In this document: positions 3,666-50,732 of the stretch, piece after piece | Position numbering within the stretch: the first letter of the stretch is position 1 | Layout of the letters: each line of letters begins with the position of its first letter | Sequence record: MW882907 | Origin: Escherichia phage vB_EcoM_SQ17 | DNA: 64,000 bases | Reading direction: 5' to 3' (one strand) | Position numbers and translations under genes: made by a program | The notes under the pieces: generated by a model | Told to the model about the DNA's origin: nothing | The model's database searches: none | The model's input: only the letters and a program-made list of their open reading frames with translations

Positions 3666-4475
3666 GGACATCCAACACATTTTATAACCTTTGCAGGTTC
3701 TATTAGGATTATTTAATGCTTTCAATATATTAGAAGACCCTATATCTAAATACTCCCTTAATTCATAAAGATAGTTAAAATCAATAGTTTCGCCTGTTTT
3801 TACACTTGTGATTCTTATAGGCCTTCTTTCATATTTAGATTTATACAACTCTCTAGTCTTGGCTTTAGTTTCTTCTGACCTAGGAGTGTATGGTTTAAAT
3901 CCTTTTGTTTTAAATGTTTCCATTCTTGATTTAGTTATTTTATCCTGGTGTTCTTTTGTTTTTACAGGTGCTTTTCGCCCATTCTCCCAAGATAACTTGT
4001 TGGCCTGTATTATTTTATCTATTGCTTCTTGCGTATGAGTTTTACCATAAAATGGATTTAATTCGCCTATACGTTGTGAAGCAATATGTGACATTAATTC
4101 TCTTGTTGCTTTAGTATGTTTTTTACCTTTAAACGGGTTGCCATTTTTAGCAATCCATTCTTTCATAAATCTAGAGTGCTCTTTAGAGAATTCTTGTTTA
4201 AGCCAATCATAATCTCTAGAATTTCTAGCTCCCATGTAAAAAGCTCTAATAGCCATAAGCATAGAACGGTTCTTATGAATTTTATAAAGCAATAAATGGG
4301 CGATAAAATGCTCTCTAGGGGTCATTTTAACTAGATTTGATTTAGCATTACTCCCGCCCATAGATTTAGGCAAAATATGGTGAGTTTCAGTATAATTAGG
4401 AATAATGCTGCGGTTTTTAGCCGCAGCGATAAGTTTATCATAAATTTTACGGTAATTCATTATCCTAGCATCCAA
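3663..4475 (-). CDS. HNH homing endonuclease, Mob-like, free-standing
   Basis: 270 aa; HHILPKSMGGSNAKSNLVKMTPREHFIAHLLL is a typical HNH core; lies between the glycosyltransferase and gene 39 where T4 has mobA; true start may be the internal ATG at 4458-4460. Confidence 0.75.
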   Translation of the reverse strand: MDARIMNYRKIYDKLIAAAKNRSIIPNYTETHHILPKSMGGSNAKSNLVKMTPREHFIAHLLLYKIHKNRSMLMAIRAFYMGARNSRDYDWLKQEFSKEHSRFMKEWIAKNGNPFKGKKHTKATRELMSHIASQRIGELNPFYGKTHTQEAIDKIIQANKLSWENGRKAPVKTKEHQDKITKSRMETFKTKGFKPYTPRSEETKAKTRELYKSKYERRPIRITSVKTGETIDFNYLYELREYLDIGSSNILKALNNPNRTCKGYKMCWMS

Positions 4476-19934: not shown

Positions 19935-20303
19935 TTAATTAAATTTGTTTAAACGTTCAATACACTGGACGTAGCTATTTGCGATTTGTTTCTGGGTAGG
20001 CTCTTTACCAGTTGTTTCAACATAGCGAATGAATGCGATTTCAGTAGCCTGTAGACAATGTTCTTTAACGCGTTGTTCTTTTGACAATGCTACAGTATCA
20101 GAATCACGATAACGTTGAGCATGGGCATCAGCTTGAATCATTCGATTACCTACAGTAACCGGGTCTTCCACTTCAACTTTAGGTTGTTCATATTGTTTAA
20201 CATTCGGATTGTAAATCAGTTGGCCGACGTTATTAGGAATAAAGCCGTGGGCACCACATCCGGTTAATCCAAATACCATTGCTAAAGCGATTAATTTTTT
20301 CAT
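19935..20303 (-). CDS. predicted lipoprotein
   Basis: 122 aa; signal peptide with lipobox LTGC. Confidence 0.55.
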   Translation of the reverse strand: MKKLIALAMVFGLTGCGAHGFIPNNVGQLIYNPNVKQYEQPKVEVEDPVTVGNRMIQADAHAQRYRDSDTVALSKEQRVKEHCLQATEIAFIRYVETTGKEPTQKQIANSYVQCIERLNKFN

Positions 20304-20373
20304 TTCAATTTCCTCTGTAGTTGATAGAAAGATAGTAACACAGTATGTGGTGCTTGTAAACAGTTATTTAAAA

Positions 20374-20562
20374 TTATTGAAAATCTGCTTCGAAAACTTT
20401 CTCGTCATTAACAAATGCTTTAACTAATGCGTTGTTCACTTCAGCAAGTTGTACCGTAACCCACTCGATTTCTTCGCGATCACCTGATAACATGATATCT
20501 TTAGTGAACATCTCACCGCTTTTAAACCAACCGATAAAAGTAACTTTAGTTAATTTGTTCAT
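20374..20562 (-). CDS. dmd: Dmd, antitoxin against RnlA/LsoA mRNA endoribonucleases
   Basis: 62 aa; VTFIGWFKSGEMFTKDIM ... NNALVKAFVNDEKV matches remembered T4 Dmd (gene 61.5). Confidence 0.8.
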   Translation of the reverse strand: MNKLTKVTFIGWFKSGEMFTKDIMLSGDREEIEWVTVQLAEVNNALVKAFVNDEKVFEADFQ

Positions 20563-38468: not shown

Positions 38469-39330
38469 TTAAATTTTTCCTCATGAATTCAGAAACTAAA
38501 GCCTGTAAAGAACTTTGTATAGGATATCCTAAATTGACTAAATTTTTAGAAAAAGTCACATATTTAGGTTTGTTCATTTTAACCCATTCAACGTAAAGCA
38601 TATCAAAATTTTCCCAATGATATCCTTTTCTTCTAGATTTCAAATGAGTGTCTCTAACTTTAGGATTTTTCCAACTGCGTGAAACTCCAGCCGATAATGA
38701 TTCTCTATATTCGGCTGTTTTAGATATTTTACGACAAGCATCCAAATGTTTTTGTTTATTAATAGGGTCACTAAACCACTTTTGGGTCATAATAGAGACG
38801 GTTTCTTTAAATTCCTTTGAACTTGTCATAATTCTGTGTTTCTTTAAATTTTCCGGATTTTTAAACCATGCTTTTAAAGCTTGACTAATCTTAATTCTAT
38901 TATCCTGATTGGAATAGTATAATGTCATTTTTATAGAATTAACTTTACAAACATTTTCGAATTCTAAAGAATACACCTCGGCTATATTATTTAGTTCATG
39001 CGTTGTACAATTTAAATTAAATCGCCCGGTATACATTCTTTGAAGCGCGTTAATCATCTTGTGGTTGCCAGTTTTTGCCAAAATGCTATGTGCAATAAAA
39101 TGGTTATAATGACTTAAATGACACAAGTTCCATTTACATGTTTTAAAATCTGGAAAAATAGATTTTGGTAGTATATGGTGAACCTGAGTCAGTCCTTTTA
39201 CTTTATTAGTGGAATTAGTTTTTATAAAGTTTAAATACTCATCAAGTCCTTCCCACGAAGGGAAGGAGGTTTTAAGAATTTTATAAATTTGAGTTTCATA
39301 ATCAGTCTTCGTCATTATACGCGTCCTCAA
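38455..39330 (-). CDS. HNH homing endonuclease with NUMOD-like repeats, inserted between genes 47 and 46
   Basis: 291 aa; VHHILPKSIF ... NHFIAHSILA HNH core; repeated basic modules (KNPENLKKH, KWFSDPINKQKH, SWKNPKVRDTH). Confidence 0.75.
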   Translation of the reverse strand: MRTRIMTKTDYETQIYKILKTSFPSWEGLDEYLNFIKTNSTNKVKGLTQVHHILPKSIFPDFKTCKWNLCHLSHYNHFIAHSILAKTGNHKMINALQRMYTGRFNLNCTTHELNNIAEVYSLEFENVCKVNSIKMTLYYSNQDNRIKISQALKAWFKNPENLKKHRIMTSSKEFKETVSIMTQKWFSDPINKQKHLDACRKISKTAEYRESLSAGVSRSWKNPKVRDTHLKSRRKGYHWENFDMLYVEWVKMNKPKYVTFSKNLVNLGYPIQSSLQALVSEFMRKNLSENI

Positions 39331-48165: not shown

Positions 48166-48704
48166 AACTCATACGCCTGGAATGCATCGTATACGTCTTT
48201 TTCTGTTTTAGATTGGGCGTAATTCAACGCATCAGCGATTTGCCATTTTTCTGCATCTTCAACATGTTTAGCGTATGTGCGTTTAACATAAGGAGAAAGT
48301 ACTTTATCTACATTAGCAAATGTAGTTCCGCCGTACTGGTGTGAAGCAACTTGTGCAGTAATTTGTGCCATAATTGCAGTAGCAACACCAATCGATTTAG
48401 GCGTTTCAATTTGAGCATTACCTAGCTTAAATCCGTTTTCAAGCATTCCTTTTAAATCTACTAAACAACAATTAGTAAATGGAAGAGCAGGGGAATAATC
48501 AATATCATGGAAATGGATAATTCCACTTTCATGTGCTTTCATAATAAAAGACGGGACCATATTTTTGGCAATGTGCTTAGACACAATACCAGCCATAAGG
48601 TCCCGTTGAGTTGGAAAAACACGAGAATCTTTATTAGCATTCTCGTTCAAAAGATCTTTATTAGTTTTATGAATTAATCCTTCAATTTCTTTTTCAATTT
48701 TCAT
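48159..48704 (-). CDS. nrdD: anaerobic ribonucleotide reductase NrdD, exon 1 (5' splice boundary approximate)
   Basis: 181 aa N-terminal segment; in-frame stop at 48159-48161 lies inside the intron; start abuts gene 49 stop. Confidence 0.7.
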   Translation of the reverse strand: MKIEKEIEGLIHKTNKDLLNENANKDSRVFPTQRDLMAGIVSKHIAKNMVPSFIMKAHESGIIHFHDIDYSPALPFTNCCLVDLKGMLENGFKLGNAQIETPKSIGVATAIMAQITAQVASHQYGGTTFANVDKVLSPYVKRTYAKHVEDAEKWQIADALNYAQSKTEKDVYDAFQAYELI

Positions 48705-49174
48705 TTTAAACTCTTTTTAAGCTGCTTTTTGAATGAAGCTATTAATTGTGTTTTGGTATCAGATTCATTATATTCAAATCCTCTTTGAAGCATCTCAGCC
48801 ATCATTTCCTCTTTACCTAGTCTTGAGAACTCTTTAGTTTTGTCTGGAACAAAATTAGGATGGATATTATTATCAGAATAATCTTGTTTCAAATAAGCAA
48901 GAAGAGCTTCAAGCCATTCGAGGTAGTCGACATCACGTCCTTTAAGACCGGAACGGTTGAACTTATGCTTCATTTGACCTTCTGCTGCATTGCACAGATT
49001 ACAGAGTAACCCACGAACTCTACCTGCTTTTGGCCCGTTTAATTCATGGTCGTGGTCAAGATGGTTACCTTGAACATCAGGGTCTAATTCACGGTGGCAA
49101 ATAGGACACTTACCATTCTGTGCATCATAAAATTTTTGTTTTTCTTCTTTGTATAATTTGCCAGATAATAACAT
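48701..49174 (-). CDS. 49: endonuclease VII (Holliday junction resolvase)
   Basis: 157 aa; nearly identical to remembered T4 gp49 (MLLTGKLYKEEKQKFYDAQNGKC..., zinc-binding CxxC pairs). Confidence 0.9.
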   Translation of the reverse strand: MLLSGKLYKEEKQKFYDAQNGKCPICHRELDPDVQGNHLDHDHELNGPKAGRVRGLLCNLCNAAEGQMKHKFNRSGLKGRDVDYLEWLEALLAYLKQDYSDNNIHPNFVPDKTKEFSRLGKEEMMAEMLQRGFEYNESDTKTQLIASFKKQLKKSLK

Positions 49175-49202
49175 AATAAACCCTTACCATATTAGATAAG
49201 GG

Positions 49203-49210
49203 TATTTATA
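49203..49210 (-). promoter_or_regulatory. T4 late promoter TATAAATA upstream of gene 49
   Basis: minus strand TATAAATA about 30 nt upstream of the gene 49 ATG. Confidence 0.45.
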
Positions 49211-49212
49211 AT

Positions 49213-49392
49213 TTAATAAATGTTATAAAAGTCACGATGGAAACGTTTGTATTGGCGAATCATTCTTTTAGTAGGACGTGTTACCGAAATGATTGAAGTC
49301 CTCATGTTCGGATTGTTTGGAGCACCAATTATAACAAATTTCCAAGATTTTTGTCCGTTTGTTCTTTCGCCAAAAAATAATGCAGTTTTCAT
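49213..49392 (-). CDS. small basic protein (59 aa), paralog of 49817-49987; absent from ORF track
   Basis: hand translation MKTALFFGERTNGQKSWKFVIIGAPNNPNMRTSIISVTRPTKRMIRQYKRFHRDFYNIY; shares TNG/KNG ... RPTKR..R..KR.HR.FY with its paralog. Confidence 0.45.
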   Translation of the reverse strand: MKTALFFGERTNGQKSWKFVIIGAPNNPNMRTSIISVTRPTKRMIRQYKRFHRDFYNIY

Positions 49393-49401
49393 AATAAGCC
49401 C

Positions 49402-49815
49402 TTAACTTAAACGTCTTTCTAAATATTCAATGTATTCCGCTGCGGCTTGCATCAGATTACCTTCATAACCGTCATTATTTTCTTGGGCGGCTAATTTAGC
49501 TAAAGCATAAGAAATACGTTCACCTTCGAATTCGCCAAGTCCACCATCACAAACTACTTGGTCAATTTCTTCGAGTTCATCTATTGAATGGGATTCCCAG
49601 AAGCACCAAAGAGAAGTATCACGGTCATAGATGCAAAGTTTCTCACCTGTGTTCAACATCACTTCGATAATGCCATGGTCGCCATAACCATCTTCGGTAG
49701 TAGTACCAATTACCTTGATGATCGTATCTTTCTTTAATTCAGGAAACTTATCTTGGAGTTCTTCGTCTTCTTTAACAATCTTGAACCATTTACCGCGAGT
49801 TTCAGAAATATTCAT
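49402..49815 (-). CDS. hypothetical acidic protein
   Basis: start set to internal ATG at 49813-49815 (MNISETRGKWFK...); flanked by the two small basic paralogs. Confidence 0.5.
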   Translation of the reverse strand: MNISETRGKWFKIVKEDEELQDKFPELKKDTIIKVIGTTTEDGYGDHGIIEVMLNTGEKLCIYDRDTSLWCFWESHSIDELEEIDQVVCDGGLGEFEGERISYALAKLAAQENNDGYEGNLMQAAAEYIEYLERRLS

Positions 49816-49816
49816 A

Positions 49817-49987
49817 TCAATATTCTCTATAAAAGTTACGATGAGAACGTTTAGCTTTGCGAAGCTGACGTTTAGTAGGACGAACTGTAAATGGTTGTCC
49901 AGAGAAAAAATTCGGATCGGTTTTAATAAGCAAATACCAATCATGCTTGCCATTTTTTAATAAACGGTATAATAATTTAACTTGCAT
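49817..49987 (-). CDS. small basic protein (56 aa), paralog of 49213-49392
   Basis: start set to ATG at 49985-49987 (MQVKLLYRLLKNGKHDWYLLIKTDPNFFSGQPFTVRPTKRQLRKAKRSHRNFYREY). Confidence 0.45.
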   Translation of the reverse strand: MQVKLLYRLLKNGKHDWYLLIKTDPNFFSGQPFTVRPTKRQLRKAKRSHRNFYREY

Positions 49988-50115
49988 AATAATCTCTTCC
50001 CATTTCCATATCAATTAATTCATTTATTGAAGGTTCATCATAACACGTTTCTTCGTCATTGTAAACTGTTTCGACGTCTGGCTCGACTGTCTCCCATCGA
50101 GCCGAATACCACGGT

Positions 50116-50472
50116 TTAACCCCGGAGTTTATTGAGCTCTTCATAATCAATCCAGGATTCTAGCCCTGACGGCAGGTCACATTCAATGTTCCACAGAAGC
50201 TCTTCAATGGCTTGCAGGCGATTATATTCTTCAACGGTAATGGTAACCATTGGTGCAACCGGTTCTGCCTTTTTAACCATCATATCGTTCATCAGGACGT
50301 AAAGGTCATCACGAACAACAGTGTCGCTCCAACCCCATGATTTGGCTTCGTAAGCTAATGATGAAGGGAGCACATTTAAAACTTCAATAATAGTTGGAGC
50401 ATCAGGACCAAGTTCATTGGCACAAACTTCGTATACATCTTGGAAATCTTTAAGATTTAATGAATATGTCAT
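50116..50472 (-). CDS. hypothetical protein
   Basis: 118 aa ORF directly downstream of nrdC. Confidence 0.5.
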   Translation of the reverse strand: MTYSLNLKDFQDVYEVCANELGPDAPTIIEVLNVLPSSLAYEAKSWGWSDTVVRDDLYVLMNDMMVKKAEPVAPMVTITVEEYNRLQAIEELLWNIECDLPSGLESWIDYEELNKLRG

Positions 50473-50732
50473 TTAAAATATTCTCGTAGTTGGTCAAAGC
50501 CACCGATCGAAGTTCCATCAGGAGCAAACACTTGAGGCATAGTCAATCCGACTTGTGATTCACGTCCAAGCTTAACCAGAAGCTCAGCAATTTTCTCATC
50601 ATCAAAAACACCTTTTTCCGGCATAACATTAATGAATTCGAATGGTTGTTTCTTAACAGTCAGCAATCGTTTCGCATTATCACAATAAATGCATTTATGA
50701 ATAGTAGAGTCATACCCGTACACTTTAAACAT
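50469..50732 (-). CDS. nrdC: phage thioredoxin/glutaredoxin NrdC
   Basis: start set to MFKVYGYD; near-identical to remembered T4 NrdC including the CIYC active site. Confidence 0.85.
   Translation of the reverse strand: MFKVYGYDSTIHKCIYCDNAKRLLTVKKQPFEFINVMPEKGVFDDEKIAELLVKLGRESQVGLTMPQVFAPDGTSIGGFDQLREYFK

Follow-up and report, generated by a model that had tools for sequence, protein, structure and literature searches.

Escherichia phage vB_EcoM_SQ17 (sequence record MW882907) carries, between nrdC and gene 49, a compact locus in which two small, very basic genes (copy A and copy B) flank pin, the gene for the acidic Lon inhibitor PinA. The 64,000-nucleotide stretch that was analyzed, hereafter the window, comes from an RB69/JS09-like Mosigvirus, and the 2 kb around the locus is 99.5% identical to phage vB_EcoM_JS09. 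The minus strand carries every gene of the locus in a tight run of 49.1, B, pin, A, and gene 49 (Table 1). B begins within the end of 49.1 and stops 1 nucleotide short of the pin ATG, and 9 nucleotides separate the pin stop codon from the ATG of A. An initial annotation of this DNA had described two small open reading frames (ORFs) of roughly 57 amino acids on either side of an acidic protein of 138 amino acids. Both small ORFs do exist, encoding 59 (A) and 56 (B) amino acids, and the protein between them has 137, with isoelectric points of 11.4 for A, 10.8 for B, and 4.3 for the acidic product. By sequence and predicted fold, A and B are two diverged short-form paralogs of TifA (T4 gp61.4; Pfam DUF7279), the ToxN inhibitory factor (PMC9391042).

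BLASTP aligns the two copies from end to end with 36% identity (E 4e-11), and when either protein is searched against the window by tblastn, the sole significant match is the other copy (E 3e-8). A third copy in the window was considered and rejected, the best other tblastn match having an E value of 0.33. The motif common to A and B reads xNG..W..I..PN....RPTKR..R..KR.HR.FY, and its second half, RPTKR..R..KR.HR.FY, stands in both copies just as first reported. The best-conserved DNA between them is the 3′ block encoding RPTKR...FY, with ~73% identity averaged over the three codon positions. Similar DNA had also been noticed upstream of both start codons, and this can now be given as the 14-mer AAGRGNTTATTATG. 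A, B, and gene 49 each have it at their start, which makes three occurrences in all in the 64 kb where 0.01 would be expected. This initiation sequence is confined to the lineage of the window; A-type genes of other phage lineages start differently.

Substitution patterns identify A and B as genuine protein-coding genes under purifying selection. The ratio of non-synonymous to synonymous substitution rates (dN/dS) has a median of 0.13 across 13 A-type orthologs, and for B it is 0.10-0.15 against diverged Mosigvirus orthologs of the mar005P1 group (9-17 synonymous and 6-11 non-synonymous changes). The tight packing of the genes, the shared initiation sequence, the early-promoter-like site upstream, and the fact that RB69 and JS09 already have A and B annotated, as the hypothetical proteins ORF087c and ORF089c, support the same conclusion. 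Tequatrovirus and Gaprivervirus records, along with further T-even-type contigs, have an intact A-type frame in the equivalent position. Relatives of B with at least 87% identity come only from coliphage and Shigella-phage records, and every one that was inspected is a Mosigvirus. A duplicated promoter or terminator alone is excluded as the source of the A/B similarity, which extends over the full length of the proteins with few non-synonymous changes. One metagenomic Mosigvirus contig (comparison locus L008, 3087-3267) has copy A frameshifted by one extra T in a T-run, and this could be either a pseudogene or a homopolymer sequencing error.

The route to TifA was a weak tblastn match to T6 gp61.4 together with the Pfam tags of T4-type gp61.4 proteins. 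Scored against PF23945 (DUF7279), which has a gathering cut-off of 24.5 bits, A reaches 53.8 and B 54.5 bits, and the long forms T4 TifA (gp61.4) and RB69 TifA reach 72.7 and 63.0 bits. Both copies also match phrog_3272 (E 1.8e-30 for A and 5.8e-27 for B), T6 gp61.4 can be aligned with them end to end, and an hhalign comparison of the short forms with the published long TifAs gives a probability of 97.3% (E 1.9e-11). Among 26 family members, RPTK, R+4, and K+7 are invariant. These residues appear as P37-T38-K39-R40-x-x-R43 in B and P40-T41-K42-R43-x-x-R46 in A, the equivalents of the Pro-Thr cap and of K55, R56, and R59 in TifA. AlphaFold2 models place strands at residues 2-9, 15-24, and 27-33 and a helix at 39-55 in B (predicted local distance difference test score, pLDDT, 87.6), and strands at 2-9, 15-22, and 31-36 and a helix at 42-58 in A (pLDDT 89.5). 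This predicted beta-beta-beta-alpha fold agrees with the published AlphaFold-based description of TifA as an N-terminal three-stranded sheet with a C-terminal basic helix capped by P53-T54 (PMC10853763).

A and B therefore resemble TifA in Pfam family, in predicted fold, in the R-P-T-K-R-x-x-R...K-R start of the helix, and in being small, very basic genes of T-even-type phages. They differ in length, at 56-59 amino acids as compared with 68-98 for the long forms, and do without the extra N-terminal strand residues, most of a specificity loop of ~20 amino acids, and the C-terminal extension. They end instead in a conserved H-R-x-F-Y tail that is absent from the long TifAs. Their position differs as well: the gene for TifA is directly downstream of dmd, whereas A and B surround pin near gene 49, ~28 kb from the dmd-tifA locus. 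The short form, as judged by sequence, was found only in T-even-type phages. The BFVD database holds similar 54-amino-acid proteins in phages Merlin and S16. A word-indexed homolog search with B alone returned only two near-identical proteins, and a HMMER search of 1.84 billion representatives with a four-sequence profile returned only two clusters at E ≤1e-3. No NCBIfam model covers A, B, TifA, 49.1, or ORF091c, and a literature search on "DUF7279" found nothing. The family is nevertheless a known one (TifA/DUF7279), though its Pfam label remains unknown function. The description of the locus as one of unknown function can thus be replaced, with the acidic protein assigned as PinA (PF10465, E 3.5e-47) and the small genes placed in a family that includes the characterized TifA.

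Table 1. Features of the nrdC-49 interval and of the dmd region in the window (positions are those of the window)
Feature	Position	Strand	Remarks
nrdC	50469-50732	minus	
ORF091c	50116-50472	minus	
49.1	49977-50144	minus	
Early-promoter-like site	50038-50067	minus	GTTTAC, 14 nt, GTGTTATGAT; inside 49.1, ~50 nt upstream of B; promoter scan, 10/12, TG extension
AAGRGNTTATTATG initiation site of B	49985-49998	minus	
Copy B, short TifA-like gene	49817-49987	minus	homolog of RB69ORF089c
3′ block of B	49820-49882	minus	encodes RPTKRQLRKAKRSHRNFYREY; other direct-repeat arm, ~604 bp from A arm
pin, PinA Lon inhibitor	49402-49815	minus	
AAGRGNTTATTATG initiation site of A	49390-49403	minus	
Copy A, short TifA-like gene	49213-49392	minus	between pin and gene 49; homolog of RB69ORF087c
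3′ block of A	49216-49278	minus	encodes RPTKRMIRQYKRFHRDFYNIY (Pro-Thr cap and basic helix); direct-repeat arm; from alignments
T4-type late promoter motif	49203-49210	minus	TATAAATA; directly after A stop, upstream of gene 49
Hairpin	49180-49203	minus	ACCCTTATCTAATATGGTAAGGGT; 3′ arm includes the gene 49 Shine-Dalgarno sequence
AAGRGNTTATTATG initiation site of gene 49	49172-49185	minus	
Gene 49 (endonuclease VII)	48701-49174	minus	conserved downstream anchor of the locus
dmd	20374-20562	minus	
dmd-adjacent slot	20304-20373		without tifA
imm.1	19935-20303	minus	

The product of the middle gene matches PF10465 over profile positions 2-136 of 136 and phrog_2167 at E 3.7e-51, the JS09 and RB69 relatives annotate Pin, and the gene is orthologous to T4 pin with 50% identity between the proteins. 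The Mosigvirus protein ends ...YLERRLS, while T4 PinA is longer, at 161 amino acids. The start of pin at 49815 was set by homology to T4 Pin. A longer ORF of 183 amino acids in the pin frame, starting at 49953 (49402-49953, minus strand), was rejected as an alternative-frame artifact overlapping B. GenBank records such as those of EP32B and the ESh15 type annotate the long form as a "protease inhibitor" of 180-184 amino acids, which hides B; with the shorter pin, the annotation is corrected in several records where an over-extended pin ORF had concealed this gene.

The small genes and pin have been sorted into many combinations. In Tequatrovirus KIT03 (and L012) the order is pin, an A-type gene, and gene 49, while T4 has pin with no intact small gene. 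In L011, 49.1 is followed by an A-type gene and gene 49 with no pin. Mosigviruses EP32B, NRG-P0074, and MM02 (L007, L022, and L023) have B and pin but not A, and phiE142-type Mosigviruses (L009 and many others) have a B-type gene directly upstream of gene 49 without pin. Gaprivervirus VR7 (L005, 1056-1501) and several Dhakavirus/Gaprivervirus-like contigs (L010, L016, and L018) have a 59-amino-acid ORF corresponding to the C terminus of Pin, an unrelated ORF of 90 amino acids, and then an A-type gene. No other element of this variable interval is as widely conserved as the A-type gene that directly precedes gene 49. An origin of the A-less genomes by recombination of the A and gene 49 initiation sequences with each other was considered and rejected, as the late promoter and the hairpin are retained there.

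An obligate two-component system would show joint occurrence and joint loss, and natural genomes fail on both counts. A-type genes or B occur without pin, pin occurs without A, and pin occurs with neither small gene intact, so an obligate basic/acidic partnership of A and B with Pin is not supported. The initial annotation had proposed either a duplicated module or a basic/acidic partner system, and of these the first half stands, given that both copies belong to PF23945 and PHROG 3272, and the second is not supported, in view of the independent occurrence of the small genes and pin.

A feature with which the flanking arrangement does correlate is found in the phiE142-type locus. When positions 2540-2730 of L009 are compared with positions 49160-49290 and 49765-49898 of the window, the locus matches B without a difference as far as ...CATCGTAACTTTTATA; beyond this point it is identical to what follows at the 3′ side of A, with the late promoter, then the hairpin, then gene 49. 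The switch from B to A at CATCGTAACTTTTATA puts the junction inside the conserved 3′ block that is common to both paralogs. The same contiguous B/A hybrid is present in many Mosigviruses and gives a single-piece match in most of the top 30 hits, including Shf125875, CEV1, PHB12, ST0, and SHSML-52-1. The simplest reading of the alignments is that the hybrid arose by deletion of pin and most of A through recombination between direct repeats ~604 bp apart; the reverse event, an insertion of pin plus A, is the less simple possibility. The bracketing of pin by the two genes has a structural correlate, seen in the direct repeat and the hybrid junction, while a functional partnership is not supported, and pin is a variably present cassette bounded by a paralogous repeat.

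A further deletion marks T4 PinA itself. Comparison of T4 (L003, AF158101.6, 1201-1257) with KIT03 (L004, 1193-1377) reveals a 134-bp deletion that has fused pin, after codon 146, to the final 15 codons of an A-type gene without a change of frame. T4 PinA consequently ends ...SFSDR-MIQQYKRLHQMFYNT, with the 15-residue tail outside the Pfam Pin domain, and database clusters have far more members for the 161-amino-acid fused PinA than for the unfused form of 148 amino acids. On this alignment, the 15-residue tail of T4 PinA is what is left of a deleted A-type TifA-like gene. The PinA protein of biochemical studies carries this TifA-like C-terminal relic, and its annotation is corrected accordingly. 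A different joining was seen in P0033, an ENA metagenome protein of 191 amino acids. It is a full in-frame B-Pin fusion (PF23945 and PF10465) in which one nucleotide has been lost at TATTGATATG; this single sequence has other small indels and may be an assembly error.

The canonical tifA gene is missing from the window. There, dmd is followed directly by imm.1, while JS09 and RB69 have a tifA gene for 70 amino acids between the two. When aligned with JS09, the window has a clean gap of ~207 bp that extends from the final codons of dmd to those of tifA, with a junction that joins GATTTT to CAATAA and alters the last residues of Dmd. With tifA deleted, A and B are the sole DUF7279 genes in the 64 kb. 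The close relatives PNJ-6, JQD51, and JS09 carry tifA along with A and B, so there is no systematic replacement of one by the others. Elsewhere, two Dhakavirus/Gaprivervirus-like loci have two long TifA homologs each, of 98 and 73 amino acids, in the dmd-61.x region (L019, 2408-2704 and 3860-4081; L020, 1314-1610 and 2399-2620). The contigs concerned (also represented by L016 and L013) have an A-type gene near gene 49 as well, so three family members per genome are not unique to RB69-like phages.

Published work on TifA gives a frame for what the short forms might do. TifA traps the endoribonuclease ToxN on cellular RNA, chiefly 16S rRNA, and neither the P53A/T54A nor the K55A/R56A/R59A mutant binds RNA or neutralizes ToxN any longer (PMC10853763). 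In vitro it binds RNA, single-stranded DNA, and double-stranded DNA without clear sequence specificity, and residue 41 in its loop contacts ToxN and tunes binding (PMC10853763). Published work also groups TifA with Dmd and gp61.2 as an anti-toxin island (PMC9391042).

The explanation favored here is that A and B are short TifA paralogs that act as early RNA-binding counter-defense proteins, to which we give a probability of roughly 0.6. A and B would be made early in infection alongside PinA. The early-promoter-like site inside 49.1 could drive a B-pin-A transcript, and at the equivalent place SA79RD has a site annotated for its similarity to a T4 early promoter. The basic helix would bind RNA, as its conserved residues suggest, and the variable surface formed by the sheet and turn would capture a host protein, most likely an RNA-cleaving defense toxin, which would be immobilized on bulk RNA in the way that TifA traps ToxN on 16S rRNA. 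RNA binding is the likely part of this proposal, and a counter-defense role for A and B has about an even chance. The targets probably differ between A and B and from that of canonical TifA, given that A and B are only 36% identical and both have lost most of the ToxN-contact loop; that ToxN itself should be the target is unlikely. Together with the Lon-blocking PinA, the nrdC-49 interval would constitute a second small counter-defense islet. It would resemble the Dmd-TifA-gp61.2 island in grouping small, early accessory genes that neutralize host toxins, within a hyperplastic region where short-homology recombination has been at work. It differs in its locus (nrdC-49) and in that a known activity exists for PinA only, so that it is a putative island.

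Several points weigh against this explanation. The loop that confers specificity on TifA spans ~20 residues between strands of the sheet and carries residue 41; in its place B has a mere 2-residue turn and A a loop of 8 residues. Many Mosigviruses do without A, and the A-type gene has been lost in T4-type Tequatroviruses. Solved structures offered no informative relative, the fold being a small generic beta3-alpha unit. The published neutralization panel (Table S2 of the TifA study) covers only long, dmd-adjacent homologs, and 6 of its 10 homologs neutralized none of the ToxN/TenpN toxins tested (PMC10853763), so family membership is no predictor of the toxin target. In addition, the order of events behind the hybrid, with pin lost or pin plus A gained, is inferred.

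Other functions for A and B can be set against the same observations. One is that either or both inhibit ToxN redundantly with canonical TifA and compensate for the deletion of tifA in the window. Membership in the shared family, the retention of the RNA-binding residues, the empty slot between dmd and imm.1 that JS09 and RB69 fill with tifA, and a hydrophobic residue aligned with TifA F41 (F27 in B and M30 in A) are all in line with it. It is unlikely all the same, since most of the ToxN-contact loop is gone, even full-length divergent TifA homologs failed against ToxN, and tifA coexists with A and B in the relatives named above, with no complementary pattern of presence. A general nucleic-acid-binding role with no defense target, for example as an RNA chaperone or a translational regulator at the gene 49 hairpin or at the AAGRGNTTATTATG sites, would draw on the broad nucleic-acid binding of TifA, on the position of the A-type gene, always immediately upstream of the gene 49 regulatory hairpin, and on the 14-nt initiation sequence common to A, B, and gene 49 only. 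That sequence is, however, specific to the lineage of the window and differs in the A-type genes of other lineages, and genes that are dispensable in many phages fit an accessory function better than a core one. The surface of the sheet is also strongly divergent next to an invariant helix, which suggests a variable protein partner, and such a regulatory role seems decidedly unlikely.

Binding of A, B, or both to the acidic PinA or to Lon, with modulation of Lon inhibition (e.g., as Lon decoys through the K-R-x-H-R-x-F-Y tail), is improbable in our view. The small genes adjoin pin in several genera with a spacing that fits translational coupling, and their charge is opposite to that of Pin, but co-occurrence breaks down in every direction, and adjacency has little weight where T-even gene order is conserved regardless. 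Two fusions could be read as signs of partnership: the in-frame joining of T4-type PinA to the last 15 residues of an A-type protein and the complete B-Pin fusion of the metagenomic P0033, although the latter is open to the doubts about assembly already mentioned. The tail of B is weakly like the Sul20 Lon degron of SulA (RQL...K.H.N[LF]Y, with the Sul20 sequence taken from PMC8087443), and 54 of 2000 shuffles score as high. The comparison was made post hoc, and no such likeness reaches significance in A, in KIT03, or in the tail of T4 PinA (p 0.08-0.14); the B tail, moreover, is predicted to lie within a folded helix, where it would provide no free degron. Purified PinA, furthermore, needs no added phage partner to inhibit Lon in vitro (PMC8835725). 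Least probable by far is that A and B are decaying duplicates without function that hitch-hike in a hyperplastic region. Their presence and absence do vary, copy A is frameshifted in L008, and truncated fragments of the DUF7279 family occur in databases, but a dN/dS of ~0.1 for both genes, an invariant functional motif, and open frames maintained in records of Mosigvirus, Tequatrovirus, and Gaprivervirus as well as in more T-even-type contigs are not what decay would leave.

TifA is the sole characterized member of DUF7279 so far, and most tested homologs have no known target. With up to three paralogs, RB69-like phages offer concrete and cheap candidates for new anti-toxin specificities. The two paralogs of the window are short forms in which the RNA-binding helix is kept and the target-binding surface appears to be replaced, and the 56-amino-acid B provides a minimal scaffold for structure-function studies. 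A more speculative and rather doubtful extension makes A and B specificity-diversified "RNA-tethering antitoxins," each trapping its own host RNase toxin or other defense effector and forming the second islet with PinA. In that extension the TifA-derived helix fragment on T4 PinA may also have a function, perhaps as a tether between PinA and RNA or Lon. Were this true, the Lon inhibitor known from textbooks, T4 PinA, would combine two counter-defense modules as a chimera.

The sequences around gene 49 have been annotated in related phages. A late promoter is annotated in SA79RD at the place equivalent to the motif that follows A. The gene 49 hairpin is called a terminator in NRG-P0074 and MM02 and is conserved in T4 and KIT03.

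On the other side of the small genes, the C-terminal 55 residues of the ORF091c product have a match at E 1e-32 in PHROG 3402, a family with the annotation "antitoxin from a toxin-antitoxin system," and a weak one in Pfam to the RecBCD inhibitor T7 gp5.9 (E 0.016). The same C-terminal domain is a separate ORF of 46-56 amino acids in KIT03 and EP32B, and it may be a further counter-defense module beside B. Farther away in the window, a MobE-like homing endonuclease of VR7 gives tblastn matches on the minus strand at 39034-39291 (E 1e-22) and 4281-4406 (E 9e-5), which suggest homing-endonuclease genes or their remnants at these places.

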